DNA of 64,000 nt. It comes from Nitrospirota bacterium (GTDB lineage Bacteria; Nitrospirota; UBA9217). Positions within the stretch are counted from its first letter, which is position 1; every line of letters starts with the position of its first letter. A program made the position numbers and the translations under genes. Below, one piece after another: positions 1,503 through 58,180 of the stretch. Location of the stretch: contig CAVVUN010000001.1 in NCBI GenBank assembly GCA_963751455.1, positions 544,001 to 608,000 on the forward strand, given 5' to 3'. The notes under the pieces were generated by a model. The model saw only the letters and a list, made by a program, of their open reading frames with translations. It searched no databases and was not told the DNA's origin.

Positions 1503-1559
1503 TTATACACGGCTGCCTCCTATCGCGGCCGGATTGAACCCTTTAACGATCAGCCATAT
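1503..1559 (-). pseudogene. C-terminal remnant of a third DUF4386 gene cut by the transposase element
   Basis: Reads IWLIVKGFNPAAIGGSRV* directly after the element end. Confidence 0.65.
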
Positions 1560-1560
1560 C

Positions 1561-2525
1561 AAAACCTTTAGAACCTTTAGAGAACCTTTAGGGTCAAGTC
1601 TTTTTTGTTGCATTTTCGTATTCACGAAGCCAGCGGCTGATCGTCGAGTAGTGGACGGCCACATGACGGGCAAGTTCACTCTGATGATAACCGTATTTTT
1701 CCACGGCCTCGGACACCTTTTTCATCAGTTTGCGATGATTGTTCATGGCCGAGTCGGGCAGCAAAACGGCAAGCGACGGTCGAGTCGAATATCGCTGACT
1801 CCGGGGAATTTCGGGAATGTCCTTGTGCTTTTTGAGATAATCCGTAAGCTTATCTACGAAATCGTCCTCACCTAAAAGCGCTTGGCCTCGCACTTCCGTC
1901 CAGATCGTCTTCTTTCCAATACCCCACTGAACGAACTGGCGATACTCTTTTTCCGCTTTATCTCGTTTTCTGCTGAATTGACCGAGCACCCAGTCCTTTG
2001 TGAGGCAGGGATGAGGTTCTGCCTTACCCGCCGTCGCAAGGTAACTGGACCACTTCCAGTCTTCCGGCGCTTCGACCATCTTTGCTCTTACCGGATTTAG
2101 AACCACATATCGGCAGACCTCAAGGAGATGACTGTCTTTCTGGATCAAGATGGCCTTATACCGGCCCTGGAATAAATGCCCGGACCTTCCGTGATACTTG
2201 TTGAAAAGTTGCGTATAGACGCCGTTCAATTGGCGCATACCGAGAGAAAGATTGCCTTCCGGGGTCTCGATAAGAAGGTGGTAATGATTTGTCATGAGGC
2301 AATACGCATGACAGATCCAATTGTACCGCTTGTTGACGTGCTGGACCGTGTTCAGGAAGTTTTCGCGGTCCTGGTCGTTTTTGAATACGGACTTCTTCTC
2401 ATTGCCACGGGATGTTACGTGATAGACCGCACCGGCATATTCTATTCTTAGAGGTCGGGCCATGGGGCGACTGTAGCAGAAATCAGAATAAAATGCAACG
2501 AAAAAGACTTGACCCTAAAGGTTCC
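1561..2525 (-). mobile_element. HUH/Y1 (RAYT-like) transposase element, copy 1, with terminal inverted repeats
   Basis: IRs 1582-1616 and 2490-2524 (35 bp, 1 mismatch); three AACCTTTAG units at 1563-1591; near-identical second copy at 11280-12157. Confidence 0.85.
1594..2463 (-). CDS. REP-associated-type tyrosine (Y1/HUH) transposase with C-terminal HTH
   Basis: MARPLR start, YHVTSRG, HUH motif NHYHL, GHLFQGRY, catalytic RYVVLNP, WSSY, C-terminal HTH (ELARHVAVHYSTISR). Confidence 0.9.
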   Translation of the reverse strand: MARPLRIEYAGAVYHVTSRGNEKKSVFKNDQDRENFLNTVQHVNKRYNWICHAYCLMTNHYHLLIETPEGNLSLGMRQLNGVYTQLFNKYHGRSGHLFQGRYKAILIQKDSHLLEVCRYVVLNPVRAKMVEAPEDWKWSSYLATAGKAEPHPCLTKDWVLGQFSRKRDKAEKEYRQFVQWGIGKKTIWTEVRGQALLGEDDFVDKLTDYLKKHKDIPEIPRSQRYSTRPSLAVLLPDSAMNNHRKLMKKVSEAVEKYGYHQSELARHVAVHYSTISRWLREYENATKKT

Positions 2526-2597
2526 GTTAGCGTTAGTAAAATTGATGGAACTAACAAAAAAATGTAAAATGCAATATCTGCCATATCATTTTTCCCG

Positions 2598-2656
2598 GTA
2601 CAGCCGCGCGGGTGAGGAGCGTGCTTTTCGCGACTCACTCGACCCGCTCGTTAACA
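2598..2656 (-). other. attC site (one core degenerate)
   Basis: Minus-strand TGTTAAC follows the stop of 2657-3238; imperfect palindrome nearly identical to the attC at 14476-14533. Confidence 0.75.
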
Positions 2657-3238
2657 TCATGTTCTTAATTGAAGTAATTGCTCCAGCGAGACCCGCAGTA
2701 TGTCAGAGTTAACAGCATGAGTAACGTCAGCGGATACGCTAATACTGTTTCGAGCCAACACAGGGAACGACCAACCATTTTTAATTAAAATTCTTATGGC
2801 TTCTTTTCGTGATGAATTGTTTAGATACCTTTTCGCTTCCTCCGGTGAATTGGAGTAAATGTTGTATTTATCAAGTTCTGGATCATTGGCAATAACTTTT
2901 TTTGCGAATAAAACTCTGCTTGGCCCTGAATAAGAAAATAATTTCAACTTGCTTTTTGAGATTGAACTGCATCTGAGTTCTAATCTGTTCGGCGGTGCAC
3001 CTTCGACACGGGTATATGTCAGCGTAAACTTACAGTCATTAAATTGCCCCGTAAAGCAAGGTTCGTCAGAAAGAAATTTTCTTGCCTCCGATAATGAACC
3101 GGGGAATTGGGTCGATAGATTTTCTAGCTTCTCATAGTAAGGCTGCATAACTCGACGATTTCTTCGGAAGAAATATGCAACCACGAATGTAAGAACAAAA
3201 ATACCGCCAATGAATGTAATATAAGGGTTCATGCTCAT
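2657..3238 (-). CDS. Gene cassette: hypothetical protein with N-terminal membrane anchor
   Basis: AT-rich ORF exactly bounded by attC sites; hydrophobic N-terminus. Confidence 0.75.
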   Translation of the reverse strand: MSMNPYITFIGGIFVLTFVVAYFFRRNRRVMQPYYEKLENLSTQFPGSLSEARKFLSDEPCFTGQFNDCKFTLTYTRVEGAPPNRLELRCSSISKSKLKLFSYSGPSRVLFAKKVIANDPELDKYNIYSNSPEEAKRYLNNSSRKEAIRILIKNGWSFPVLARNSISVSADVTHAVNSDILRVSLEQLLQLRT

Positions 3239-3244
3239 TTAGGG

Positions 3245-3300
3245 GGTTAACGCGCGCGTGTACCGCCGCGTAGCGGTCGGACACGACGCGCTGGTTGGAA
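3245..3300 (-). other. attC site
   Basis: GGTTAAC...GTTGGAA with imperfect palindrome gcgcgtgt-accgc/gcggt-acacgacgcgc; next gene starts 6 nt after the core. Confidence 0.85.
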
Positions 3301-3365
3301 TTCATCTTCTTGTCATGATGGAGAACCAGCTTGTCAATATCAAAGATTCGACCCAAGACACTCCC

Positions 3366-3390
3366 AATCAGTGCATCCGCTTGTTATGGC
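3366..3390 (-). other. Half attC (truncated)
   Basis: GCCATAACAAGCGGATGCACTGA just after the stop of 3395-6055; no partner arm. Confidence 0.5.
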
Positions 3391-3394
3391 AATC

Positions 3395-6055
3395 TTATCG
3401 TCGATCTATAGAATATGAATAAGATCCACTGGCGGAACCACAACCCATGTTGTTACAACCTATGAATCTGAGCTTAGTCCTCTTGAATTGTCCTGGATTA
3501 GCATAGTACTGAAACGTCCCCGATGGCCCGCTGATTGAACCGTCATTAGATGATGGAGTCGGTGCAGATGGCGTGCTAGGCGTACTGCCGTCATACGTGT
3601 TGACCATCGTATAATAAATTGTCGTGGCACCGCTACTGCCGACGCTGATATTCTGCGGAGATGACGTCCAGCTGCCGCTGGACGGGCTTACCGCGACACT
3701 GCCCGGCACTGTCCTTAAGTCTATCGAGTATGAGTACGATCCGCTTGCTGGTCCGCACCCCGCACTATTGCAACCTATAAACCGGAGCTTGGTTCTCTTG
3801 TGCTGATCAGAGCTTGCGTACAACTGAAACGTTCCGGAAGCTCCGCTGATTGAACCGTCGTTCGAAGAGGGTGACGGCGCATCAGGATCAGAAGGCGCAC
3901 TGCCGTCATACGTGTTGACCATCCTATAATAAATTGTCGTTGCGCCGCTACTGCCGACGCTGATATTCTGCGGAGATGACGTCCAGCTGCCGCTGGACGG
4001 GCTTACCGCGACACTGCCCGGCACTGTCCTTAAGTCTATCGAGTATGAGTACGATCCGCTTGCTGGTCCGCACCCCGCACTATTGCAACCTATAAACCGG
4101 AGCTTGGTTCTCTTGTGCTGATCAGAGCTTGCGTACAACTGAAACGTTCCGGAAGCTCCGCTGATTGAACCGTCGTTCGAAGAGGGTGACGGCGCATCAG
4201 GATCAGAAGGAGTACTGCCGTCATACGTGTTGACCATCCTATAATAAATTGTCGTTGCGCCGCTACTGCCGACGCTGATATTCTGCGGAGATGACGTCCA
4301 GCTGCCGCTGGACGGGCTTACAGATATGCCAGCCGGTATGACTTCAGAATTGACAATAACAGTGTAGTTAACAATATTACTCATCTTACCTGAACTATCC
4401 GCACCCCACCAGGTATAGGTTCCAGCCGGTCGATCCGAAGGTATCGTGTAAGTGATGGAAAACGTTCCATCTGGTTTAATACTCTGCGAAAGAGTTGGGA
4501 ACTCTGAGCCATCGGGCTTCTTAAAATGAAGCACAGCTGTGCTGTTGGGAGTGAAACCTGTGCCCCACTGCGACACTGTATCGGCCTGCTTCGCCGTCAT
4601 CGGAGTCTGAGCAACTGTCGGGGATACTGTTATGCTATCGACAACGGAAAGGACGAAATTCTTCTCTGCTTTTTGTGAATTATTATCGTAAACTTGCACT
4701 GTAAACTGATAAGTTCCGGTATTTGTGGGTATTCCTGAAATCTCACCGCTTGCACTTAAGCTTAGACCTGTTGGCACTATACCGTCAGAAAGTTTCCATG
4801 AGTATGGCCACGAGCCACCTAAAGCTGAAAAACGGAAGTAATGGTAAGCGCCGACTTTACCAACAGATAGAATCTTCGACGTTGAAATTGATATTGGAAG
4901 AGGCTGCGACAAATTGTCAACAGAGATAGCACTATCTCGCTCTGCAATATCACCACTTGAGTCGGTTACAGCTACTGTGAATTGGTAGGTGCCTTGTTGT
5001 GAAGGAGCGCCAGAAATTACACCATCCTTTGATAATGAAATCCCGGGAGGCAGATTGCCTTTAGCAATTGACCATGTATATGGTGGAGTGCCGTCAACTG
5101 CGGACAAAATAAGACTAAAAGCGTTGCCAACAATTAATGACGGGCAATATGACAAACTCCCTTCAACTATACCAACCTTAAAATTCTTATCCTTTTTCGT
5201 AACGCGCAGACCGATTGCTTGGCCACCATTACCCGGAAGCTTACCAACACGCTCCCATTCATCAAGAAAGCTTTTCCTTGTAAAACTCCGTTTATGAGCA
5301 TACGTTTCATATAGCCAGGTCCGTCCGGGATCATTAGCATAAACATAATCTTCGTCAATCCCTACAACTAGCATCCAATGTTGGACGCTCCCTTGCTTCA
5401 TTGTCCCCGGAATCGAGTTATTACCTCCTTGGGAAGAAACTACAACTAAGACAGGGTTTCCGTCTGCTAATTCAGAACGTAGCGCTTCTAATGTTGGCTT
5501 TATGTACTCAACGCTAAAATTACCCTCTTTCTCTAACAACTGTTTCATCTGTTTGTTGTCCGTATAGTCGCCGGTGTATTTATCTCTTCCATATCTTGGT
5601 GGATTATAACCGTCAATATTAGAAATATTGTCAGGATATTGGGGACCCATCCAATCGATCATATTTTTCAGATTTGACCATGCAGTGTCATGATTCGGCG
5701 CGATATCGATGTGATAATGAAATGCTTTTAGCATCAAATAGCTTGCAGGCCCACAGTTCACATTATTTCCATCCGGGCCAGATTCAAATTGAGATATATA
5801 GGGAACATCAAGCGTTTGGCTATCCTTCTTTAATGCGTGCGGCGCCAAAACGGTTTTCGAATAAGTTGAATTTGTCGCGCTATTACCAACAACAGCAACA
5901 AGATCATCATGACTGACTATAACTGCTCCCGCCAATTGAGGCCCATCATCTATAGGATCGCCACTACCGCCACCGTTATGACAAGAAATTAGCAAAAGAC
6001 CAAATAAGAGGAAAAATATGATCCTTCTAACGAGTCTATATTTTTGTCTCATCAA
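3395..6055 (-). CDS. Gene cassette: lipoprotein with C39-like cysteine peptidase domain, two He_PIG/Ig-like domains and three 105-aa repeats
   Basis: Lipobox LLISC; Q...NCGPAS...QHWMLVVG...DP; GTPPYTWS...GNLPPGISLS..G.ISG.P Ig motifs; C-terminal repeats. Confidence 0.8.
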   Translation of the reverse strand: MMRQKYRLVRRIIFFLLFGLLLISCHNGGGSGDPIDDGPQLAGAVIVSHDDLVAVVGNSATNSTYSKTVLAPHALKKDSQTLDVPYISQFESGPDGNNVNCGPASYLMLKAFHYHIDIAPNHDTAWSNLKNMIDWMGPQYPDNISNIDGYNPPRYGRDKYTGDYTDNKQMKQLLEKEGNFSVEYIKPTLEALRSELADGNPVLVVVSSQGGNNSIPGTMKQGSVQHWMLVVGIDEDYVYANDPGRTWLYETYAHKRSFTRKSFLDEWERVGKLPGNGGQAIGLRVTKKDKNFKVGIVEGSLSYCPSLIVGNAFSLILSAVDGTPPYTWSIAKGNLPPGISLSKDGVISGAPSQQGTYQFTVAVTDSSGDIAERDSAISVDNLSQPLPISISTSKILSVGKVGAYHYFRFSALGGSWPYSWKLSDGIVPTGLSLSASGEISGIPTNTGTYQFTVQVYDNNSQKAEKNFVLSVVDSITVSPTVAQTPMTAKQADTVSQWGTGFTPNSTAVLHFKKPDGSEFPTLSQSIKPDGTFSITYTIPSDRPAGTYTWWGADSSGKMSNIVNYTVIVNSEVIPAGISVSPSSGSWTSSPQNISVGSSGATTIYYRMVNTYDGSTPSDPDAPSPSSNDGSISGASGTFQLYASSDQHKRTKLRFIGCNSAGCGPASGSYSYSIDLRTVPGSVAVSPSSGSWTSSPQNISVGSSGATTIYYRMVNTYDGSAPSDPDAPSPSSNDGSISGASGTFQLYASSDQHKRTKLRFIGCNSAGCGPASGSYSYSIDLRTVPGSVAVSPSSGSWTSSPQNISVGSSGATTIYYTMVNTYDGSTPSTPSAPTPSSNDGSISGPSGTFQYYANPGQFKRTKLRFIGCNNMGCGSASGSYSYSIDRR
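3405..4322. repeat. Three 315-bp intragenic tandem repeats
   Basis: gtcatacgtgttgaccatc at 3590, 3905, 4220. Confidence 0.9.
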
Positions 6056-6112
6056 AAACCTTCCCCTTATGCAAGCATCTTACTGACGACGTAGTCTAGG
6101 CATTCAATGTTC

Positions 6113-6371
6113 AATGGGGCGATAACTCGCTGCGCCCGCAGGGCGCGTCGGGTTCATTGCCTGGTTCCAGCGGCGCTTTGTACCGCGTCTCACAGGCAAT
6201 AAGCGAGTTATCGCCCCATTCCAGCGGCGGCTGGAACGTCCCGGATGAGCGGCTGCCCCCGCAGGGGGTAAGTCCGTCTCGATCCGGTTTGATGGCTCGC
6301 GCTGGTTTCGCGCGAGACATCAGGATCGGCCGCTCATCCGGGACGATGGACCGCGCGAAGCGCGGGCCATC
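6113..6371. other. Two tandem ~108-bp structured elements (three-way junctions) plus linker hairpins
   Basis: Perfect IRs 6113-6131/6202-6220 and 6237-6253/6329-6345, each enclosing a GCA-loop hairpin and a longer bulged hairpin. Confidence 0.8.
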
Positions 6372-6422
6372 GCGCGGGTAAGCCGCGTGCTTTTCGCGGC
6401 GGACTTGACCCGCTGGTTGAAA
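6365..6422 (-). other. attC site (one core degenerate, ATC for AAC)
   Basis: gcgcgggtaagccgcgtgcttttcgcggcggacttgacccgctgGTTGAAA, same family as 2598 and 14476; 13 nt from the stop of 6436-7851. Confidence 0.7.
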
Positions 6423-6435
6423 TCCTCGCTGTGTT

Positions 6436-7851
6436 TCATTGACTGGTCAATAAAACACACGGAACGATTGCGTTGGTCATCACCGGATTATATGAGGAGC
6501 GGGTCCAAGTCACTCCGTCCGGGGATGTAGCATAACCGATGTTGTCTTGGGTTCCTACCTGATACCAATACCACATTTTGTACAGACCACCATCGAAAAT
6601 GACATTTGGAACGATTGCGTTCGTCATTACCGGATTATGCGAAGAGCGGGTCCAAGTCACTCCGTCCGGGGATGTAGCATAACCGATGTTGTCTTGGGTT
6701 CCTACCTGATACCAATACCACATTTTGTACAGACCACTATCGAAAATGACATTCGGAACGATTGCGTTCGTCATTACCGGATTATGCGAAGAGCGGGTCC
6801 AAGTCAATCCGTCCGGCGATGTAGCATAACCGATGTTGTCTTGGGTTCCTACCTGATACCAATACCACATTTTGTACAGACCACCATCGAAAATGACATT
6901 TGGAACGATTGCGTTCGTTATTACCGGATTATGCGAAGAGCGGGTCCAAGTCACTCCGTCCGGGGATGTAGCATAACCGATGTTGTCTTGGGTTCCTACC
7001 TGATACCAATACCACATTTTGTACAGACCACTATCGAAAATGACATTCGGAACGATTGCGTTCGTCATTACCGGATTATGCGAAGAGCGGGTCCAAGTCA
7101 ATCCGTCCGGCGATGTAGCATAGCCGATGTTGTCTTGGGTTCCTACCTGATACCAATACCACATACTGAAAACCTTGCCCGTAGCTTCAGGTGTGGTACT
7201 CGTCACCGTTAAGGTATAGGATGTCGTTGAATTATCAGCGGCGGTAACTGTATATAAGACCGGATTTGTGAAGTCGTTCGGCGTTGTACCACTTACCTGA
7301 ATCGCAGAACCAACTTTGACGTTTGCGCCTGTTGTCGTAAAGGTTGCGACGAGTGCGGTAACATTCGTACCATTCGGGACAGTGATGGAGATTGTCTTTG
7401 CTGTTTCATTTATCGATCCTGTTGCAGCAGGGTTTGTGAATGAGAACGCTGTAAGGGCTTTTGCTGAACTGGAGGCTATCGTCACAGTCACAGTGTATGT
7501 TGCAGTTGAGTTATCAGCGGCAGCAACCGTATATGAAACCGGATTTGTGAAGTCGTTCGGCGTTGTACCACTTACCTGAATCGCAGAACCAACTTTGACG
7601 CTTGCGCCTGTTGTCGTAAAGGTTGCGACGAGTGCGGTAACATTCGTACCATTCGGGACAGTGATGGAGATTGTCTTTGCTGTTTCGTTTATTGTTCCTG
7701 TTGCTGCAGGGCTTGTAAAAGAAAAGGCAGTGATTGTTTTTGAACTGTCCGAGTTGCCTCCTCCTGTGCTCGTATTGTTATTTCCGCTGCAAAAAGACAA
7801 AGCAACGCCAACCATTAACATAAAGAAAGCCCATACCATACGTCTAAGCAT
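6436..7851 (-). CDS. Gene cassette: secreted/lipoprotein with two Ig-like (DUF5018-like) repeats and five near-identical 49-aa repeats (five-bladed beta-propeller)
   Basis: Signal/lipobox LSFC; ITAFSF...DFTNPV.YTV.AAD repeat twice; MWY...IGYATSPDG.TW.R...NPV five times. Confidence 0.8.
   Translation of the reverse strand: MLRRMVWAFFMLMVGVALSFCSGNNNTSTGGGNSDSSKTITAFSFTSPAATGTINETAKTISITVPNGTNVTALVATFTTTGASVKVGSAIQVSGTTPNDFTNPVSYTVAAADNSTATYTVTVTIASSSAKALTAFSFTNPAATGSINETAKTISITVPNGTNVTALVATFTTTGANVKVGSAIQVSGTTPNDFTNPVLYTVTAADNSTTSYTLTVTSTTPEATGKVFSMWYWYQVGTQDNIGYATSPDGLTWTRSSHNPVMTNAIVPNVIFDSGLYKMWYWYQVGTQDNIGYATSPDGVTWTRSSHNPVITNAIVPNVIFDGGLYKMWYWYQVGTQDNIGYATSPDGLTWTRSSHNPVMTNAIVPNVIFDSGLYKMWYWYQVGTQDNIGYATSPDGVTWTRSSHNPVMTNAIVPNVIFDGGLYKMWYWYQVGTQDNIGYATSPDGVTWTRSSYNPVMTNAIVPCVLLTSQ
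6450..7165. repeat. Five 147-bp intragenic tandem repeats
   Basis: ttgggttcctacc at 6547, 6694, 6841, 6988, 7135. Confidence 0.95.
7200..7735. repeat. Two 279-bp intragenic repeats
   Basis: ccggatttgtgaagtcgttcgg at 7260 and 7539. Confidence 0.9.
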
Positions 7852-7867
7852 TTTCTGGTTCTCCTTC

Positions 7868-7936
7868 TGGAAGTTAAGCGGTCATTGTCCGCTTGTACTG
7901 CTGGTTGGCACAGAGCGGTATTTTGCCGGAGCCAAC
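7868..7936 (-). other. Gene-less 33-bp mini-cassette followed by degenerate attC
   Basis: GTTGGC-21 nt-GCCAAC then CAGCAGTACAAGCGGACAATGACCGCTTAAC; 45-bp homolog at 12159-12203. Confidence 0.55.
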
Positions 7937-7988
7937 GCGCGGGTGTGGGGCGCGGTTCGCAGCGACCCACACGACCCGCTTGTTGAAG
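7930..7988 (-). other. attC site
   Basis: AGCCAAC gcgcgggtgtgggg...cccacacgacccgctt GTTGAAG. Confidence 0.85.
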
Positions 7989-8024
7989 CGATTTTATGGG
8001 ATGCAATAAAGTTATTTTTACGCG

Positions 8025-8366
8025 TTATCCTATCGGAGAGTCCACTTTATTGAGAATTGGTCGTCGCCCATGTATACTTGTAAATTGATTTAACCAAGTT
8101 CTTTCAAGTTTAGGTAGGTTTTTTGGATTGTAGATTGCAAAGTAGAACCAAATCGCCTTACCTTCTAGTGTTGGATTTGTTTTTTCTGGATTGTCGAGGT
8201 GTTGCTGAAATCTAACGAATAAATTATCCGAAAGTCCAATATATAGGATGTCATTGTCAAACGTAGTAAGAACATAACAACCTGTCTCATTAGGTACTGA
8301 TTTAAACGATGCACGTTTAAAATGTACCTTGTCTTTTGGTAGCGGAATTAGTTCGGTGATCTTCAT
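8025..8366 (-). CDS. GIY-YIG nuclease-family protein
   Basis: GCYVL...LYIGLS...RFQQH...LE...LN motifs; ATGA-type overlap with the upstream gene. Confidence 0.8.
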   Translation of the reverse strand: MKITELIPLPKDKVHFKRASFKSVPNETGCYVLTTFDNDILYIGLSDNLFVRFQQHLDNPEKTNPTLEGKAIWFYFAIYNPKNLPKLERTWLNQFTSIHGRRPILNKVDSPIG

Positions 8367-9502
8367 AATTCCATTTCTTTTTCCGTTTTAATGTCGGATT
8401 GTTTATGAAGCGCCTTCACCATTTCGCTATTTATCTTACTTAATGCGCCAGTATTTAAACCACTTGCAGTACCACTTTTCACCCAGAAATCTGTATGGCC
8501 AACTCCAGCTCCATCACCTTCAACATTTTCAAAAACATTTTCCAATAATGACTGCATCGTTGAAACTTTATAATCGGGCATATTAACCATCTTGTTGTAA
8601 AATGGAACGCAAAATTTAGAGAATAATTCAACTCCATTGTATTTGAATAGAACTGTTGGCTCACTATCGCCGAGAATGTTGGTAATAGCCTTCCAATAGT
8701 TCATGTAAATCCTATGTTGCCTGTCTTCCTTTTCTGTGTTGCAAACAGGATTATTTGCAACTAAAACATATTTCTTAATTGCTTTCACAAAACTCTTCTG
8801 ATTAATACTTCCATCACTATTATCATCATTGGCCATTTTAATTTTATTTTGCCAAGGACTGTCTTTGTCATTGTTTAAAAAATCTACATACTGTAGAGCT
8901 TTTTCATCTTCACCTTTTTGGACTGAATTGAGAATCCATTTTGGTAAATTTGGCGTATCATCGACACCCATTGCTTTTGTTAATCTCGCTCGGATTCTCT
9001 GAGCAACGCCTTCCTCAACACTTTTTTGTGTGGTATTAACAATGAGGAAGTGACACATTTGCGCAATCTCAGAAAGATTAACTGCAATATTGACAGATAC
9101 TTCAAATTCTAGAACACGAGGATCTTTATCAGCCGCCATTTTTAAACCTTCAACACGGTGTTGACCATCAACAACATTGAATGGCCCTACTTCATCGATG
9201 TCTATTTCAATGGTGTTATTATTCGGATGGAATGCTATATTTTTATCCGTTGCAATAAAAATGCTTGTCGGCAAAAATGCATCTTTAGTTTCTTGTCCCG
9301 CAACAATATAGTCGGCAAGCTTTTTTGCTCTTGACTTGTTTAGTAACCGCTGATAACCCTTATCACTAGCATTTTCAGGGTCGAGTCTCTCTATGCTATA
9401 AAAGTTCGGAATTATTAAATCTGAAACTTTTAATGATGTAGCGTAAAGGATCAGATCTCCTTGTTTTACCAAAGAGGCAGGTCTAACGATTTTCTTACTC
9501 AT
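8363..9502 (-). CDS. DGQHR-domain (DndB/ParB-like) protein
   Basis: GYQR...VVDGQHR...INTTQKSV-like motifs; start moved to ATG 9502 behind AAGGAG. Confidence 0.85.
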   Translation of the reverse strand: MSKKIVRPASLVKQGDLILYATSLKVSDLIIPNFYSIERLDPENASDKGYQRLLNKSRAKKLADYIVAGQETKDAFLPTSIFIATDKNIAFHPNNNTIEIDIDEVGPFNVVDGQHRVEGLKMAADKDPRVLEFEVSVNIAVNLSEIAQMCHFLIVNTTQKSVEEGVAQRIRARLTKAMGVDDTPNLPKWILNSVQKGEDEKALQYVDFLNNDKDSPWQNKIKMANDDNSDGSINQKSFVKAIKKYVLVANNPVCNTEKEDRQHRIYMNYWKAITNILGDSEPTVLFKYNGVELFSKFCVPFYNKMVNMPDYKVSTMQSLLENVFENVEGDGAGVGHTDFWVKSGTASGLNTGALSKINSEMVKALHKQSDIKTEKEMEL

Positions 9503-9526
9503 ATTTTCATCTCTCCTTTTTAATGT

Positions 9527-9560
9527 GTCGGCAACAATACTTGTCTCAAAATCAACCAGT
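9527..9560 (-). other. Candidate attI crossover site
   Basis: GTTGCCG core (AAC at 9533-9535) just upstream of the first cassette RBS, between array and divergent intI. Confidence 0.45.
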
Positions 9561-9956
9561 GTTTGATGGGACGGAAACCGCCCCGCCATTTCAGAAAATT
9601 CGGTAATGGCGGGGTGAAAATTAAATATTTTTGTTCAATAATGTAAACTTCTGCAACTGCGGTTTTCGCCTTGCCAAATACTGAATTTCGGAATTGGCAG
9701 GATAAAATTTCTGCAACTTTAAATGCAAATCGAGTATATTTTATGCATTATGGCCTGTCAAGATAAAGTTGTTCAAAGTTGTTGAATATTCGGATCGGAA
9801 TACAACGCGAGAACACCTTTCCCGAATTAAGAAAAACACATGAATGAGACACTCTTATGAATACCAGCATGATGATAGCGTTCTCCTCTTGATAAGTGAA
9901 CATTTGTTCACTATATTATTGTTTATATGGTTCATGAAGCTGTCTGAAGCAACCGT

Positions 9957-11288
9957 TTGATTCTCATACGACCCGTGCAACCCATACCCAAAGATATTCT
10001 GGCTAAATTTGACGGCATTCTGAAACAACGGAATGTCCCCCTTTGCTCCCGATCCGATTACCGGAAGTGGCTGCTGTATTTTCTCGACTTCCGAGCTAAA
10101 TATCCTCTTCCGGAAGGCAAATCGGATCAAGTGAGGGCGTTCGCGGACAAGCTGCGGTCAAAGAATCAATCCTCCATGCAAATAGAGCATGCAGCTAAAG
10201 CGATTTCGCTGTTCTTTGCTTTGCAACAGGGAAAAAAGACTATTTCATCGTCGGCCGCCGCGCAGATTGCGCCTCCTGCAGCCGGGCCGCATTGCGGCCT
10301 ACAGGTAAAATACATCCAAGCACAGCAACTGTGCTCAACAACAGCGACGAAGGAATCCGAGATGGTTTGCGAGCCGCCGGCGCCCTCCGCGCCGTACACG
10401 CCCAGGATCCGGGGCGGCAAACACTACGATGAATGGCGCTGCCTCAAAAAAACCGAATCCCCGGCGTGGGACAAGGTCATTGAAAATCTTGCTGCGGAAA
10501 TAAAGCTGCGGCATTACTCTCGAAAAACGCTCAAGCATTATGCGGACTGGAGCCGCAAGTTCCAGAACTACCTGAAAGACAAACCACCTTCGGAATTGTC
10601 TCCATCGGAGGTGAAGGCGTACCTGACGTATCTGGCCGTGAACTGCAAGGTATCCTCAAGCCACCAGAACCAGGCGTTCAACGCACTCTTGTTTCTGTTC
10701 AGACATGTTTTAAAGACAGATTTCGGCATCCATAAGGACATCCCGCGCGCGAAGAAATCGAATTACATTCCCGTGGTTCTTTCCCGCGAGGAAATCGACG
10801 CTGTTTTGAGACATCTCGAATATCCATACAAGCTTGTGGCCCAACTCCAGTACGGCTGCGGGTTACGCATTTCGGAAGGCTGTAAACTGCGGGTGAAGGA
10901 TTTCAATTTTGACGCCGGCATTCTCACTGTCCGCGGAAAAGGCGATAAAACCCGCACCGTGCCTATTCCGCAAAGAATCGTGCCGGAGCTTCAGGCCCAA
11001 ATAGAGACCGTGAAAAAAATGCATGACGAGGATCTGGCAACAGGGTACGCAGGGGTTTTTCTCGATGATCAACTGGAGAAAAAATATCCACGAGCCGCGA
11101 AGGAGCTTGTCTGGCAATGGTTTCTCCCGAAGCAAACGTTAACCTTTGTTGCGGAAACGAAGGAGCGGCGGCGGTATCATCTTCATGACTCTCATGTTCA
11201 GGATGCGCTGAACGACGCCGTCAGGAGGGCAAAGCTCACTAAGCGCGTTACCTCCCACACCTTCCGTCACTCATTCGCGAACCTTTAG
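9957..11288 (+). pseudogene. intI: Integron integrase, long N-terminal form, 3'-truncated by transposase element
   Basis: IKLRHYSRKT, SSHQNQAFNALLFLF, YGCGLRISE, RGKGDK.R, IntI-specific KYPRA.KELVWQW, HTFRHSFA then immediate stop; LLGH...TMIY (catalytic Tyr) missing. Confidence 0.9.
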
Positions 11289-12157
11289 CGAACCTTTAGG
11301 AACCTTTAGGAACCTTTAGGGTCAAGTCTTTTTCGTTGCATTTTCGTATTCACGAAGCCAGCGGCTGATCGTCGAGTAGTGGACGGCCACATGGCGGGCT
11401 AGTTCACTCTGATGATAACCGTATTTTTCCACGGCCTCGGACACTTTTTTCATCAGTTTGCGATGATTGTTCATGACTGAGTCGGGCAGCAAAACGGCAA
11501 GCGACGGCCGGGTCGAATATCGCTGACTCCGGGGAATTTCGGGAATGTCGATACCCCACTGAACGAACTGGCGATACTCTTTTTCCGCTTTATCTCGTTT
11601 TCTGCTGAATTGACCGAGCACCCAGTCCTTTGTGAGGCAGGGGTGAGATTCAGCTTTACCCGCGGTCGCAAGGTAACTGGACCACTTCCAGCCTTCCGGC
11701 GCTTCGACCATCCTTGCTCTTACCGGATTTAGAACCACATATCGGCAGACCTCAAGGAGATGACTGTCTTTCTGGATCAAGATAGCCTTATACCGGCCCT
11801 GGAATAAATGCCCGGACCTGCCGTGATACTTGTTGAAAAGTTGCGTATACACGCTGTTCAATTGGCGCATACCGAGAGAAAGATTGCCTTCCGGGGTCTC
11901 GATAAGAAGGTGGTAATGATTTGTCATGAGGCAATACGCATGACAGATCCAATTGTACCGCTTGTTGACGTGCTGGACCGTGTTCAGGAAGTTTTCGCGG
12001 TCCTGGTCGTTTTTGAATACGGGCTTCTTTTCGTTACCACGAGAAGTTACGTGATAGACTGCACCGGCATATTCTATTCTTAGAGGTCGGGCCATGGGGC
12101 GACTGTAGCAGAAATCAGAATGAAATGCAACGAAAAAGACTTGACCCTAAAGGTTCC
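11280..12157 (-). mobile_element. HUH/Y1 (RAYT-like) transposase element, copy 2
   Basis: Perfect 35-bp IRs 11309-11343 / 12123-12157; four AACCTTTAG units at 11280, 11291, 11301, 11311. Confidence 0.85.
11322..12095 (-). CDS. Y1/HUH transposase, copy 2 (32-aa in-frame internal deletion)
   Basis: Near-identical to 1594-2463 but lacking GKKTIW...KKHK. Confidence 0.9.
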   Translation of the reverse strand: MARPLRIEYAGAVYHVTSRGNEKKPVFKNDQDRENFLNTVQHVNKRYNWICHAYCLMTNHYHLLIETPEGNLSLGMRQLNSVYTQLFNKYHGRSGHLFQGRYKAILIQKDSHLLEVCRYVVLNPVRARMVEAPEGWKWSSYLATAGKAESHPCLTKDWVLGQFSRKRDKAEKEYRQFVQWGIDIPEIPRSQRYSTRPSLAVLLPDSVMNNHRKLMKKVSEAVEKYGYHQSELARHVAVHYSTISRWLREYENATKKT

Positions 12158-12196
12158 CCTTGGACTGCTAGTTGGCGTAGAGCGGTATTTTGTCGG

Positions 12197-12253
12197 AGCC
12201 AACTCGCCGGTCACTCGCCGCAAGGCGAGTCGATGTGGACCGGCAGGTGATAT
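12197..12253 (-). other. attC-like site (degenerate core GGT for GTT)
   Basis: GCCAAC tcgccggtca-ctcgcc gcaa ggcgag...ggaccggca GGTGATA. Confidence 0.55.
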
Positions 12254-12312
12254 TTTTAACGCGACGCTGAGGGGCGCGTTTTCAGCGACCCTCTCGAGCG
12301 CTATGGTTAGAA
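12254..12312 (-). other. attC site
   Basis: TTTTAAC gcgacgctgaggggcgcg...cgaccctctcgagcg...GTTAGAA; nearly identical to 59180-59239. Confidence 0.85.
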
Positions 12313-12437
12313 CGCTCACAAAGAAAAAGTATTAATAAGTGATGTCTGACACTGCTACATGATCACATTGATTTGTCCTTAGAAGTTGATGTGGTGCATC
12401 TGCACCACTTTCATGGCCGCTTTGATAGAAATGGGCT

Positions 12438-14360
12438 TTACGATCTAAATCTCTCACCAACAAGATGTATCGCCAGCTTTGCAAATTCATACAGATCCGC
12501 GTTATCCCGTTCAATTAATTTTATGCCTATTTCTGTAACTTCTGGAATAAGCAAGCAGAGAAATTTCCTTTTGTTATGTGCCATATCTCTTGATAAATTA
12601 AGTGCGGCAGTAAATAATTTATTTGCTTCGCCATAATTCGCTTCCAACAAGTAACACAACGCCAAGTTGTAAGATACTAGTGCGTCAGATAAACTAACTG
12701 ATGTTTGTTTTTGCGCTTTAATTAAGTACTCCTTAGCCTCCGAAATTTTGTTTAATGATAAATAAAGGTATCCGATATTGTTTAATACAGATACACTACT
12801 TTTCTTATCGCAAAAGGTAAGCGCTTTTCCCAAGTCACTGATTACCTCAAGTCGATAACCACCGTATTTGTCATTCCCGGTTTTAGCAAGTTCAAATTTT
12901 GTTTTTGAAAGGTTGTCATATACCGTAAAGCATCCCTTCATATTTGTTGACTTGCAGATTGTTATTGCTTTTTGTAAATCTATACAAGCTTCTTCTAGCT
13001 GCCCTATGTTAGATAAAGATGCGCCTCTAGAACAAAGTGCTCCTGCATGATTTGGCTCATACGATAAAGCTTTATTGAAATATTTAATTGCCTGCGTATC
13101 GTCATCCGTTATTAGCCCCAACTGGTACCAAGCATTTGCATTATTTTCATCAAAGGATAATGCTTCGGTTAGTGCTTTTTTTGCGTAATCTTTTTGGTCT
13201 AAACTTTTCAAACAAATTGCTTTGCAGACATGATAGCTAGATTCACTGGACCTTATTTTTATTGCTTGATTAAATTGAAGCAATGCCTCTTGATAGTCAT
13301 CGTTGTCTAGAAGAAGTAATCCATAATGGAAATGGATGGAAGAACAACCGTTATTGAAATCCAGTCCTTTTTTATAGCAAATAGCAGCCTCGTCCTTTCT
13401 GCCCTGTTGCTCCAGTAGAATTGCTTTGTGATGCCATAAATATTCGTTTTTTTCATCAATTTTAATTGCATCATTTAAGCAGTTTATGGCTAAATCTTTT
13501 TCATCTTGCTGAGTAAAAATTTCTGCTTTTAAAATTAATAATTGCACGTCGGAACTATGATCTTTTATTAATTCGTCAAGAAGCTTCTTTGATTCCTCAT
13601 ATTTCTTTAAATTGACCAGTATCTGTATTTTTTGGTAATAATAAAAAGAGGTTAATGTAATATTATATTTTTTGGACGCTTTTTCTATTTCGTTCACACA
13701 GACCCGGAACTTAATTTCGTCATCTGTGGTTATCTTACTTCCACTATTTTTAAGTTCTGAAAATGTTACAAGGGACTCTTTGACTTCTTTCTCAATATAA
13801 TCTTTTTCAGGAAATACCAGTTTCATAAATGCTTCTTCAACCAGCGGCTCAACTTTCTTCAGTTCGTTAGTCAATATTTCTCTTAGATTCTTGGGATCAC
13901 TATATTTATATCTGACATACATTTGATCTTTCACGTCTGAGAAGTCCTTGTCCATGTCTATCAGTGCAACAGGAGGTTTCTTCATCGGCTCTTTCATAAA
14001 GCTCTGAATATCAATACATGCTTTTTGTTCCAGCAGCACTATACAAGGCTTGCGAAGTCCAACCAGAATTCCATATTCAAATATAACATTCGGCCTAAAA
14101 CCATCCAAAATTATGATCGCTAACGAGCATCTATTTAAAAAATCTAGAAGCTGAGAGTATTGACTGTGGCCAGGTATTCCATGGATTGAAAGTCTTTTTG
14201 TATCATATTTTCCTGTTGCTTCTAATACTGTTTCAATGGCATCAAGCGTGATCGCAATATGCGGCTCTCTAGACGAATAAACAATGAAACATGTTTTTGT
14301 TGATTCTTTATGCATGTCTAGTCGTATTTGCATGTAGTGAACAATTTTTGTTTCATCCAT
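12438..14360 (-). CDS. Gene cassette: N-terminal nucleoside 2-deoxyribosyltransferase/TIR-like domain fused to TPR array
   Basis: CFIVYS...RCSLAIIILDGFRPNVIFEYGIL..LRKPCI; many TPR motifs (AWYQLG, ALCSRG, VLNNIG). Confidence 0.7.
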   Translation of the reverse strand: MDETKIVHYMQIRLDMHKESTKTCFIVYSSREPHIAITLDAIETVLEATGKYDTKRLSIHGIPGHSQYSQLLDFLNRCSLAIIILDGFRPNVIFEYGILVGLRKPCIVLLEQKACIDIQSFMKEPMKKPPVALIDMDKDFSDVKDQMYVRYKYSDPKNLREILTNELKKVEPLVEEAFMKLVFPEKDYIEKEVKESLVTFSELKNSGSKITTDDEIKFRVCVNEIEKASKKYNITLTSFYYYQKIQILVNLKKYEESKKLLDELIKDHSSDVQLLILKAEIFTQQDEKDLAINCLNDAIKIDEKNEYLWHHKAILLEQQGRKDEAAICYKKGLDFNNGCSSIHFHYGLLLLDNDDYQEALLQFNQAIKIRSSESSYHVCKAICLKSLDQKDYAKKALTEALSFDENNANAWYQLGLITDDDTQAIKYFNKALSYEPNHAGALCSRGASLSNIGQLEEACIDLQKAITICKSTNMKGCFTVYDNLSKTKFELAKTGNDKYGGYRLEVISDLGKALTFCDKKSSVSVLNNIGYLYLSLNKISEAKEYLIKAQKQTSVSLSDALVSYNLALCYLLEANYGEANKLFTAALNLSRDMAHNKRKFLCLLIPEVTEIGIKLIERDNADLYEFAKLAIHLVGERFRS

Positions 14361-14475
14361 GGTGCATTACTCCCTTCTGGAACATAGATACTGCGTAGAT
14401 TGAGCTGAATGTTCTTTGTGAAACCCAACAAACCTTCTGAAGAAACGTTGATCAAGCTGAACCATTTTGCCCAGC

Positions 14476-14533
14476 CTACAACGCGCGCGTGAGGAGCAAG
14501 CTTTTCGCGACTCACTCGACGCGTATGTTATCT
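14476..14533 (-). other. attC site
   Basis: CTACAAC gcgcgcgtgagg...ctcactcgacgcgtat GTTATCT; overlaps the stop of 14528-15517. Confidence 0.9.
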
Positions 14534-15517
14534 TACAGCCTCTTGGAGCACCTTCAGGTGCTCTGATGTTTCTTTGCTTTTAGGGTTCAATTTCAAACTT
14601 TCCTGAATTACTTTCTCAGCCTCTGCCGACTTCCCCATTTTATGTAATATCCATCCCTTCGTATCGAGAAAATATGAATTGTCGGGTTGATGTTCTAGAG
14701 CTGCTGTTATAAGACCTACAGCTTTATTGAGGTACTTTTCGTTCTCAGCATAGTCCATCGCAAGTTCATTCATAATCATTGGATCTTTCGGATATAGAGA
14801 TTGTGCAGTTTCTAATGTTGTCAATGAGCCAGACAGATCTTTAATATCTTTCTGGAACCTAGACAGCATTATATAAATATCTGCCTTTGAAACTGTCTCT
14901 GCATCATGAGTGTCGCGTTTCATTTCTGAGATAAAACTTTTAAGAATGTTTATAGCGATATCAATATTACCTTTTACCCAATTACACATCGAGCTGATAA
15001 TTGCCTTCTTAGTTGGATCATCACATTTTGCTTCAGCTTTATGTAAATGTTCGAGAGCTTCATCTTTTCGACCCATTTTCTTCAAAATTTTAGCAGTCTC
15101 TATATGAAGCCCGATAGCGTCAGCGCCGTTTCTTAACGCTTCTTGACATGCCTGGAGAGCCATTTCGGTCTCATTGAGCGCGTCATAACATGTCCCCACT
15201 ATAAACAGGGCGAAATCATCTCGGGGATTAAGCATCAAATATTTATTAAAGTAGAAGACGGCATTTTTATAATTACCAAGATTTAAATAAGAACGCCCAA
15301 GATAGTACCAATTGTATTTTGAAAAAGTCTTGTCATTATTATGTGAACTTTCAGATTTTTCAAATTTCGATATAGCTTTTCGGTACTTTCCCAGTTCGAA
15401 AAATATATTCCCCAGATTTGCATAATGTGTTTCTTGAAGGGTAGGTATGGTCCAAAAAACAAGGTGATTCCAATATAGTTTCAGGTACAAGATCAGATAT
15501 CTTAATCGAGTAGGCAT
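14528..15517 (-). CDS. Gene cassette: TPR protein
   Basis: Repeated TPRs (YANLG, WYYLG, FLDTKGW); bounded by attC sites. Confidence 0.8.
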   Translation of the reverse strand: MPTRLRYLILYLKLYWNHLVFWTIPTLQETHYANLGNIFFELGKYRKAISKFEKSESSHNNDKTFSKYNWYYLGRSYLNLGNYKNAVFYFNKYLMLNPRDDFALFIVGTCYDALNETEMALQACQEALRNGADAIGLHIETAKILKKMGRKDEALEHLHKAEAKCDDPTKKAIISSMCNWVKGNIDIAINILKSFISEMKRDTHDAETVSKADIYIMLSRFQKDIKDLSGSLTTLETAQSLYPKDPMIMNELAMDYAENEKYLNKAVGLITAALEHQPDNSYFLDTKGWILHKMGKSAEAEKVIQESLKLNPKSKETSEHLKVLQEAVR

Positions 15518-19972: not shown

Positions 19973-20393
19973 TCTTTAATTTTGAGTCAATGTTTGAGAA
20001 ACAAAAAAGTACCAAATGAGTCAATAATATTATCCGCGGATTGCGCAGATTTCGTCGATTAAAACCAACGCCTGATTTAATTTGTTCTATTTAAAAATCT
20101 GCGGATATCTGCGAAATCTGCGGATAAAGCTTTTAAAAATTCCAGTTTTGCTTCATCGGTCTCAGACGTTTTCCCCGTTAAAAACCTTTACTTCGCATTA
20201 TCTTTAAATTTGAGTCAAGTTTTTGAGAAGCTAAAAAGCGTTTACCGCGAAGGCGCGAGGAGCGCGAAGGAAACCATACGACAAAATCTTATTTCTGGTT
20301 TAAACCCGTTTCAATTCCTGCTTTCCTCGCGTCCTTCGCGCCTTCGCGGTTCCAAGGTATTTTTTTCATCGGTCTGAGGCCTTGCCTCGTTAA
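19973..20393. repeat. Two tandem ~200-bp MITE-like units with shared flanks but different internal palindromes
   Basis: Shared tctttaa..ttgagtcaa..tttgagaa..aaaaag head (19973, 20201) and ttcatcggtct...gttaa tail (20152, 20365). Confidence 0.7.
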
Positions 20394-22960: not shown

Positions 22961-23240
22961 CAAGTTCGAAATTCTAAACTACAAATCCTAAATAATATCG
23001 AATCTCAAAAAACTCAAAATTCGAATTTGATATTTCGATATTGTTTCGAATTTAGAAATTAGTAATTAGTCAGTTACAAATCAAATTCTTCTCAAAATGG
23101 GAAAAATATTTACCGCGAAGGCGCGAAGGTCGCGAAGAAAACCTTGCAAGTCTTGAATTAAAAAACAAAATCTTTTTTTGATGTCCTTCGCGTTCTTCGC
23201 GCCTTAGCGGTTCCAAGGTTTTAGTTCCGGCTTGTCCGGG
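22961..23240. repeat. Intergenic palindromic repeats (7-mer ttcgaa iterations; family B cgcgaagg palindrome 23109-23213)
   Basis: 23109-23213 matches 20241-20351. Confidence 0.7.
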
Positions 23241-37384: not shown

Positions 37385-38254
37385 TCATGTCTTAAGAACT
37401 TTCCTTGTCTTCATGATGAAGCTGCCGGCCGATTTTCCTTCAATGGTCAGTCCGGCTTTTATGGTGAAGCTGTCATCATCGCGCACGACTTTCACTTCAG
37501 CCGCTACCTGATCGCCGGGCAAGACCTGCCTCGAGAATTTCGCTCTATCAACCGCCGACAGGACCATCGGACAGGAACTCGCTTGTTCAGCCAATACCAA
37601 CGTCAAATGGAGCAGAGCCACTCCCGGAACGATGGGATATCCGGGGAAGTGGCCGCGGAAACCCGGGAAATCATGATCGAACGAGATTTTTCCGCGGACA
37701 AGTCCGTCCTGGGTGGACTCCATTCCGGAGATCTTGCTGCGAAAATAATTATGGACAAGGGTTTCACCAGGAAGCTCATTTTCCGCAGAACAGCCCGCTG
37801 TGGCCGGATCATAGGCTTTTTTTAGCGGCGACGGGTTATCGAACACAAAGAGCTTCAGGTTTCCTTTTGCCAGAAGGTCCTTGCCCCGGTAAACGTCGCC
37901 TTCTACTATAGTGAAATTGTTCAGCTGCATCCCTTTTCGCAATTTCAAGTCCAGTTCGTCGCCGGCAACCGCTTTTCCCATTACCATGAAGTCATTGACC
38001 CCGGCAAGAAAACCGCTTCTGACCGGCTTGCCCGCCTTTGTCGATTCATAGCCGTCGCCGGCAGCGGCCAATTGCGCAAGGAGTTCCACAAAACAAGCTG
38101 CGTCAAGGCCGCGGGAGCTGATGAAAATATTTCCGGGCTTGATGACTGTTTTTCCTTCCATAAAATCCGAACTGCTGGCACAGAGTTTATCGAGAAGAAG
38201 CATTGATTCCCTGTGGGGAATAATGTCTTTTGCATCAACCGGGAATTGCATCAT
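37385..38254 (-). CDS. Double-hotdog 3-hydroxyacyl-ACP dehydratase
   Basis: IPHRESMLLLD and FRGHFPGYPIVPGV. Confidence 0.85.
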   Translation of the reverse strand: MMQFPVDAKDIIPHRESMLLLDKLCASSSDFMEGKTVIKPGNIFISSRGLDAACFVELLAQLAAAGDGYESTKAGKPVRSGFLAGVNDFMVMGKAVAGDELDLKLRKGMQLNNFTIVEGDVYRGKDLLAKGNLKLFVFDNPSPLKKAYDPATAGCSAENELPGETLVHNYFRSKISGMESTQDGLVRGKISFDHDFPGFRGHFPGYPIVPGVALLHLTLVLAEQASSCPMVLSAVDRAKFSRQVLPGDQVAAEVKVVRDDDSFTIKAGLTIEGKSAGSFIMKTRKVLKT

Positions 38255-38291
38255 GTCATCGTCCTTGCTGATAGCAGTCGAACGCCCCGTT

Positions 38292-39032
38292 CTACCCGTC
38301 CAGGCGTCCCCTTATTACTGCTTCAACATGCTTTTTTAATTTGATCGCCCGGCGCTCTTCGGGAAATGAAGATGGATGCACAGGCGGAAGAATTTCCATT
38401 TTGACCGTTGCGCGCCTCACCAGGTGGTCTTTCATGGGTAAAAATTTTTCAGTCCCGGTCATGCAGACCGGAACCACAGGAATGTTCAATTCGGCTGCGA
38501 GCAGGAATGCCCCTGAACGGAAAACCTGCAGCCTGCCGTCGCGCGAGCGGTGTCCTTCCGGAAAAAAAAGAAACGAAGCGGCCCGTTCCCGAAGGGCCTT
38601 GCCGTGTCCCGCAACAAACTCCCTGACGTCCGTTTTCTCAATATCGACATACCCGGCCCTTTTCATGAACCAGCTGAGCACCCAGAGCCTGAAGGGCCAT
38701 GACCGAACAAATACGACCGTATTCGACGGTGTAAAAAACGGCGCAAAGAAAATATCCGCAGTGGAACGGTGATTGACGACGATAACGCATGCACTGCCGA
38801 CCGGTATGTTTTCTCTTCCCGCCGATACTATCTTCAGGAGCGGACGCGATGAACGGACCAGAAAACGGCCGTATAACCTGTTGAAGACCCGGAGCGCGTC
38901 GTCGATCATGCCCTTGTATATCAACCGATGCCCGATGATGATGAAGGGCGTCATTAACCCGTAGAGAGCCGTAGCGAGAACAAGATAAAAGAGATAAACT
39001 ACGGTGACTACGGTAAGCGAAATTTTTATCAT
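38292..39032 (-). CDS. PlsC-like acyltransferase
   Basis: NHRSTAD, FPEGHRS, FRSGAF. Confidence 0.9.
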   Translation of the reverse strand: MIKISLTVVTVVYLFYLVLATALYGLMTPFIIIGHRLIYKGMIDDALRVFNRLYGRFLVRSSRPLLKIVSAGRENIPVGSACVIVVNHRSTADIFFAPFFTPSNTVVFVRSWPFRLWVLSWFMKRAGYVDIEKTDVREFVAGHGKALRERAASFLFFPEGHRSRDGRLQVFRSGAFLLAAELNIPVVPVCMTGTEKFLPMKDHLVRRATVKMEILPPVHPSSFPEERRAIKLKKHVEAVIRGRLDG

Positions 39033-48472: not shown

Positions 48473-48667
48473 TTCGTAATATTCAGCTTCTTTCAGAGCG
48501 ACCTTAAGACAAATCTGAGAAAAAACTTCTATCCGCAGATTTCACAGATGGACGCAGATTTTAAAACCAGAGTTCGGGTTTTGTTTTGCCTTGCGAAATC
48601 TGCCTGCACCCGGCGCTTACGAGTGCCCGCGCGAGTGCAGGGTGCGTAATCTCTGGATAAAAAAATG
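48473..48667. repeat. MITE-like family A repeat with nested 42-bp palindrome
   Basis: Direct repeat of 50925-51079 plus insertion ctgcac...gtgcagggtgc. Confidence 0.75.
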
Positions 48668-50924: not shown

Positions 50925-51079
50925 TTCGTAACCATTCAGCTTCTTTTCAGAACGGCATTAAGACAAATCTGAGAAAAAACCCTTCTATCCGCAGATTTCG
51001 CAGATTTACGCAGATTTTAACCGGAATTCTGGTTTTGTTTTTATCTGCGAAATCTGCGTAATCTGCGGATAAAAAAATG
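50925..51079. repeat. MITE-like family A repeat
   Basis: tatccgcagatttcgcagattt.../...aatctgcgtaatctgcggata inverted arms. Confidence 0.75.
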
Positions 51080-51171
51080 CAGCGCTGCTTATTGTACCTC
51101 ACGAGGGTCATGGGCGTCAACTTTGCGTTCGCGAGGTAAGAACCGGACAGAGTACGTTTCGGCTGCACGCA

Positions 51172-58092: not shown

Positions 58093-58180
58093 TGATTTTC
58101 TCCTTCCTGATTTTATTTATGGAGGATTCTATCAGAAAGGGCTTGCGGTGTATTGTAAAAATGCGACACGATGGATTGAC

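Follow-up and report, generated by a model that had tools for sequence, protein, structure and literature searches.

The stretch of DNA analysed here, a window of 64,000 nt (C1:544001-608000 of the source genome; C1, C3, C12 and C15 are contigs of that genome, and L-numbers are loci of relatives), holds two copies of a Y1 (HUH) transposase gene set between long terminal inverted repeats (TIRs), and the tip of one repeat in each copy is built of short tandem units. The question raised by this locus is what these units record: the growth of an end, a footprint of the enzyme, or an accident of replication or sequencing. Both genes lie on the minus strand and are ~96.6% identical. The features of the two copies and of their immediate surroundings are as follows.

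1503..1560, minus strand: 3' remnant of a gene truncated by copy 1, DUF4386-like as judged by eye from neighbouring DUF4386 genes
1561..1591, plus strand: iterated downstream end of copy 1, two perfect tandem duplications, of 9 bp and then of 11 bp, each of which stops at the core's first G
1582..1616, plus strand: downstream TIR of copy 1, 35 bp, one mismatch against its partner; core GGGTCAAGTC from 1591; covers the stop and last codons
1594..2463, minus strand: TIRYT gene of copy 1, 289 aa, a Y1_Tnp domain with NHYH and YxxxNP followed by a C-terminal HTH
2490..2524, minus strand: upstream TIR of copy 1, 35 bp, without iteration
2526..2586, minus strand: 5' remnant, left by copy 1, of a cassette-like ORF that lies behind an attC-like repeat (2605-2658)
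9957..11280, plus strand: integron integrase gene intI, which copy 2 cuts short after HSFA, without the LLGH and TMIY motifs found in its paralogues
11278..11319, plus strand: iterated downstream end of copy 2, one 11-bp duplication with intI base(s) and two 10-bp duplications
11309..11343, plus strand: downstream TIR of copy 2, 35 bp, perfect
11322..12095, minus strand: TIRYT gene of copy 2, 257 aa; the linker joining the catalytic domain to the HTH has lost 96 nt in frame
12123..12157, minus strand: upstream TIR of copy 2, without iteration, adjoined by the attC-like repeats of a cassette array

The inverted repeat covers the last codons of the reading frame because the stop codon is the TCA of the repeat core. 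These coordinates and the stop within the core bear out the earlier note's description, made from the sequence alone, of two Y1 copies with 35-bp repeats (perfect in copy 2) overlapping the last codons; the in-frame deletion of copy 2 was absent from it. At the downstream ends, AACCTTTAG occurs three times in copy 1 (1563, 1572 and 1583) and four times in copy 2 (11280, 11291, 11301 and 11311), and once at each upstream end. The 11-bp duplication of copy 2, as had been claimed, does contain sequence of the interrupted intI, comprising at least one base when judged from the paralogues (HSF/Y-A-T-H-L, codons GCN ACN).

Family assignment and copies in the genome

In a profile search, the window protein matched PF01797 (Y1_Tnp) and HTH_28/HTH_23, and NF047646 was matched with 92 bits against a cut-off of 80. 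The HTH_28 score was 25.5 bits for copy 1 and 24.2 bits for copy 2 (cut-off 25), and the predicted model shows a helical tail. The motifs NHYH, FQ, YVVLNP and WSSY are present in the protein, and alignment places the catalytic tyrosine at Y119 of the 289-aa form. The closest named relatives occur in Nitrospirota assemblies, and long inverted terminal repeats bracket the gene in both window copies and in most relatives.

The window elements are TIRtrons, that is, a RAYT-like gene between long inverted repeats. The TIRtron/TIRYT has been described as a RAYT-like tyrosine transposase gene with long TIRs that may overlap the gene, a GGGGWSAS-like core and solo TIRs in the same genome (Di Nocera, De Gregorio, Rocco 2013, PMC3733652), and the gene, the overlapping TIRs and the solo TIR elements of the genome are shared with the window elements. 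The GGGGWSAS motif is reported there for many TIRs, not for all; the core found here, AGGGTCAA, agrees with it at 6/8 positions, and the exact motif is found, as GGGGTCAG, in relatives at ~50% protein identity. With its architecture already published (PMC3733652), the element as such is not new. The earlier note had regarded the TIR architecture as a novelty that a published family of the same design would remove, and since this design, a RAYT-like gene with a long inverted repeat on either side, was described in 2013 as the TIRtron/TIRYT, that part of its reading falls away.

TIRtron/TIRYT is equated with TnpA-Y1 subclass 2.1 by Quentin 2018 (PMC6006769), according to which these enzymes are found in ~15% of strains. 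Group 2.1.2 of this subclass corresponds to RAYT Group 1 of Bertels 2017, which shows the highest duplication rate among the true RAYT groups (PMC5581495). As described by Quentin 2018, subclass 2.1.2 has NH[YF]H, FQ, YxxLNP and SS motifs, a C-terminal domain of the HTH_23/HTH_28/Bac_DnaA_C type and no REPs (PMC6006769); the motifs, the HTH_23/HTH_28 tail and the lack of REPs are common to the window elements, with YVVLNP one position off Y[IV]HLNP. Whereas the subclass averages 1.9 copies at 49% identity (PMC6006769), the window sub-family is represented in this genome by 5 near-full and 2 partial copies at 95.7-99.0% identity, which is more insertion-sequence-like. Codon changes between sub-family copies are mostly synonymous (14:4 and 28:7 codons). 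Present-day activity of the element is likely.

Other identities were considered. IS200/IS605 peel-and-paste elements have subterminal hairpins, a YxxxQ motif, precise ends and no HTH tail. The Y1_Tnp fold and the lack of target duplication are in common with them, but this identity is ruled out by a YxxxNP motif in place of YxxxQ and by ends that fold no better than shuffled sequence (six end strands, z from -1.17 to +0.61), in which they differ from REP ends as well. No GTAG-tagged palindromes lie at the ends, which rules out a REPtron (RAYT groups 2 and 3), and a classical DDE insertion sequence with TIRs is rejected for lack of a target-site duplication (TSD): at 64 two-ended elements, TSD-like matches were no more frequent than in random pairings. 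IS91/ISCR elements have HUH chemistry, the lack of target duplication and one-ended events with a variable far end in common with the elements described here, but they are reported with two unlike ends (ori and ter) and tetranucleotide targets (PMC13181058); here the two ends are equivalent inverted copies and both iterate, so this identity is also ruled out. Replitrons (Craig 2023, PMC10288648) are likewise Y1 HUH transposons, with fuzzy ends that include a few bases of the flank, but as described they are eukaryotic, use a Rep-class enzyme and have direct rather than inverted terminal repeats. E. coli TnpA-REP has the nearest solved fold (4ER8, the top Foldseek match of the predicted model), but it is characterized by recognition of GTAG hairpins, cuts at CT, a single-copy gene and, in the published descriptions, no HTH tail (PMC3333891, PMC8266576).

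Several other TIRtron sub-families and solo TIR elements are present in the same genome. Gene-less TIR elements of ~50-100 bp with end duplications occur at C12:204451-215240 and in L196-L199 and L206. Two element copies are interrupted, one by an IS200-like gene (C1:505645-506259) and one by a reverse-transcriptase-like ORF (C3:359909-361800), both judged by eye. Tail-to-tail TIR junctions resembling circle or dimer junctions were seen at L058:4943-4969 and L064:5860-5894.

Duplications at the element ends

To describe the iteration beyond the window, all gene-associated ends whose core could be recognised and for which 70 nt of flank were available were collected from the genome and 130 other loci, giving 189 ends, or 179 after removal of duplicates and N-containing sequences. 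A perfect tandem duplication touching the core was present at 29/94 upstream and 20/85 downstream ends (49/179 in total), counts that are descriptive only because relatives are not independent samples. At random positions the same feature was found in 106/19,990 cases (0.5%), and when the anchor was moved by -40, -30, -20 and +20 nt, duplications were found at 1/133, 4/159, 5/171 and 9/179 positions, respectively. Iteration at the ends is far above chance. The units mostly copy each end's own outer sequence and share no motif, and the two ends of an element usually differ. Among the 64 two-ended elements, both ends were iterated in 4, only the upstream end in 18, only the downstream end in 10 and neither in 32.

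In viral contigs, where classes were assigned by eye, 3/16 ends of solo TIR elements were iterated, all three on one contig. A metagenome motif scan gave 3/21 scored ends with iteration, many of the matches having no TIR context, and phylum-wide motif loci, a mixture of true ends and chance matches, gave 4/30. Two independent Rhodospirillum plasmid records were identical to each other and without iteration. An origin of the arrays in errors of sequencing or assembly at a G-rich motif is very improbable, given that they occur in 40/93 loci, in both assembly groups sorted by record name (9/22 and 15/61 ends) and on the complete isolate plasmid NZ_CP086112, and are absent at motif-only matches.

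The geometry of 72 duplication events was then examined with positions counted from the first G of the GGGTCA core. The outer boundary overlapped -13 to -7 in 70/72 events and showed no dinucleotide preference. The inner boundary had two peaks, one at the core edge and one at +5, and lay just before GGTC or GGGT in 26 of the 31 unambiguous cases; the core contains two GGTC-like repeats (GGTCA-GGTC, in direct orientation), at which these preferred boundaries fall. On average, the outer boundary lay at -9.2 where the event ended at the core edge (n=44) and at -9.3 where it ended 5 nt deeper (n=23; p=0.58). Since both classes of inner stop have the same outer boundary, the latter is anchored to the core and not to the unit length. 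Most events ended at the core, with a few longer ones of 26-902 bp that began at the same outer boundary; several of 26-51 bp were found in several loci, and a 902-bp tandem duplication without internal mismatch lies in a sister sub-family (C1:184288-186135). Zero microhomology was observed in 31/72 events, against 34.6 expected by simulation, and mean microhomology was slightly high (1.18 against 0.84 simulated). Homology is not required for the duplication.

The earlier note had read the iterations as a telomere-like extension of the gene-downstream end. The order of events is readable in 6/19 adjacent pairs, which force the newest unit to be innermost; the other 13/19 are order-free, and the parse is blind to the reverse order. 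In copy 1, the 11-bp event reuses the end of the earlier 9-bp unit, so that the newer unit is the inner one. New units thus arise beside the core and older ones are pushed outward, the units being templated copies of local DNA, and the growth is not telomere-like. That the outermost unit of copy 2 holds intI sequence suggests that it was duplicated in situ once the gene had been truncated. The restriction of iteration to the downstream end holds inside the window but not in the genome, where 4/13 ends of the sub-family are iterated, three downstream and one upstream (C3:359716), and 3/6 downstream ends are without iteration, nor among relatives, in which both ends iterate. Of the earlier interpretation as a whole, a multi-copy Y1 element with repeatedly re-joined ends and flanks that look deleted is retained, while TIR novelty, end-specificity and the telomere analogy are not.

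Tip duplications, adjacent deletions and cut positions do not appear in the text of the 2013 TIRtron paper (PMC3733652) that was compared. A search of the accessible literature found no report of the end-duplication footprint, and the quantified footprint of TIRtrons is provisionally regarded as apparently new.

How the duplications may arise

The tip duplications are likely to be scars of where the enzyme cuts and rejoins DNA. The reading that we favour, at a probability of about 0.5, is that the units are small perfect duplications arising from a Y1 nick ~9 nt outside the GGGTCA core, inward copying by a polymerase and resealing. The HTH would bind the core, the Y1 enzyme would nick one strand ~9 nt outside it, and the catalytic tyrosine would take up the 5' end of the strand that reads inward. 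A host polymerase would extend the flank inward by strand displacement, usually stalling at the protein-bound core, and attack of the stalled 3'-OH on the phosphotyrosine would reseal the strand and leave a short duplication. Such a duplication would be an aborted rolling-circle start, each TIR acting as its own start. Synthesis going further would give a long tandem duplication, and joining of the 5' end to a 3'-OH farther out in the flank would delete adjacent DNA and so account for the truncation of intI and of the cassette genes. The three kinds of junction, those of the short duplication, the long duplication and the adjacent deletion, have one invariant partner in common: the inward 5' end of the element, ~9 nt outside the core. 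A nick at this place is the simplest reading. Long-range junctions in the genome, read by eye, had no GGTC context, which fits an acceptor 3'-OH not cut by the enzyme.

The chemistry has precedents. HUH enzymes keep the 5' end on the tyrosine and pass it to a 3'-OH (PMC3333891, PMC8266576), a nick-extend-rejoin model has been proposed for tandem BIME amplification (PMC3333891), and E. coli TnpA-REP performs strand transfer in vitro (PMC3333891). Characterised Y1 enzymes, however, are described as picking their sites through guide pairing (PMC8266576); a distance-defined, sequence-blind nick would therefore be unusual, which counts against the model, as does the slightly raised mean microhomology. 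Moreover, a nick fixed at -9 would lose the outer units on moving, so that the 9+11 array shared by copy 1 and C15:1292506, which have different flanks, needs either occasional outer cuts or convergence. The cut strand is ambiguous from sequence. A C↓T cleavage rule modelled on the E. coli RAYT was rejected, being at odds with the exact junctions found at the core edge. In favour of the nick model, a contig of 141 nt, taken from an unrelated run, joins an upstream end and 2 further nt to a site 419 nt inside; adapter sequence lies on both sides of it, and it may represent one molecule or a chimera of the library.

Possible, although in our view doubtful, is a scheme with two cuts, in which a sequence-specific nick after GACC on the outward strand primes outward synthesis and the 3'-OH used for joining comes from a second cut ~9 nt beyond the core, or in which staggered nicks, one per strand, are filled and resealed. 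The inner boundaries are sharply sequence-linked (the 26/31 cases above), and the bases that Y1 enzymes usually read lie 5' of the cut, both of which favour this scheme. Further in its favour, GACC↓T is known as a weak site of E. coli TnpA-REP, and the two-cut BIME scheme of Ton-Hoang 2012 gives the same products as a single nick (PMC3333891); in L058, the outward GACC is joined directly to a 7-nt outer segment. However, the long duplications and the deletion junctions are mostly without GACC/GGTC context, and two tyrosines would be needed for the 9-bp product.

That the duplications stem, without Y1 catalysis, from slippage during replication or from repair at a TIR that is paired or bound by protein deserves little credence. 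One unit is repeated several times in some arrays (L016, L065 and copy 2), and the slight excess of microhomology would also suit it, but first duplications without any homology are common (31/72), unit length changes within an array while the outer boundary stays fixed, the ends fold no better than shuffles (z about -1.2 to +0.6), and none of 16 chance core matches without TIR context in the viral contigs (classes by eye) was iterated. No better placed is the idea that the units are footprints of repeated insertion into, and excision from, existing TIR ends, which we consider improbable. TIRtrons in this genome are often nested in other TIRtrons, and C12:235565 is a chimeric end with the outer unit of the window sub-family outside the core of another sub-family, as self-targeting would predict. 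In most relatives, however, the unit is an exact copy of the end's own unique outer sequence and usually unlike at the two ends, whereas an incoming element would bring its own.

Under the favoured nick-and-reseal reading, and tentatively, at somewhat less than even odds, TIRtrons may represent a distinct active class of HUH transposon, in which both inverted ends would be rolling-circle origins cut by distance from an HTH-bound core, with no guide; aborted starts would record the cuts at the tips, longer runs would duplicate the element, and one-ended joins would delete neighbours such as integron integrases. The footprint fixes both junction positions within a few bases, and whether and how TIRtrons move is therefore testable with a handful of oligonucleotides. 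The literature search found no activity test of subclass 2.1 Y1 enzymes and no biochemical test of any TIRYT.

Flanks, neighbouring genes and the integron

The absence of a target duplication and the truncation of neighbouring genes, with the missing parts not on the far side, had been pointed out before and were both confirmed for the window copies. Copy 1 is flanked by two gene stubs unrelated to each other, and intI is without ~45 C-terminal residues that its paralogues have (including LLGH and TMIY). Elsewhere in the genome assembly, neither the lost part of intI nor that of the DUF4386-like gene was found. Integron-integrase remnants exist at C1:32070-32236 and C12:96275-96810, with no TIR beside them and with sequences that differ from the missing part of intI. 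Of 26 flank pairs in which each side had an open frame of 45 aa or more (51 distinct frames), none matched one Pfam family on both sides as a clean insertion would, this being a weak test, and no empty site or clean insertion of a whole element was found in the genome or the relatives. Several TIRtron ends in the genome are joined to the interior of other TIRtrons. The lack of TSD excess, the lost gene parts and the ends joined inside TIRtrons fit a process in which each end is reset independently by one-ended joining, and the flanks of the window copies look deleted. The footprint indicates that TIRtrons actively rearrange variable regions, here apparently inactivating an integron integrase, and are not domesticated genes.

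Targeting of integrons as a family trait was rejected, as an integrase match within 5 kb was found in only 6/79 loci. Three of the six abut the upstream TIR (L008:2071-2265, L011:4432-4938 and L029:4710-4919), and at least two of these genes are apparently truncated, like the window intI.

The integron itself extends over 2605-15517 of the window, with minus-strand attC-like cassettes on both sides of the truncated intI, and the cassette array to the right of copy 2 does not form the natural continuation of intI. The first cassettes of the integron (8025-9589) carry genes for a DGQHR/DndB-like and a GIY-YIG protein, which may form a defence pair. At 3395-7851, cassettes encode two proteins that look secreted and contain internal repeats, with periods of 315 bp and 147 bp; one of the two has a C39 peptidase-like domain. 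Elsewhere in the window, two families of short, partly palindromic, REP-like intergenic repeats occur at 20090-20361, 23102-23222, 48491-48603 and 50945-51084, and two ORF pairs of equal lengths (289 + 246 aa), perhaps a duplicated pair, lie at 37385-39032 and 57223-58921.
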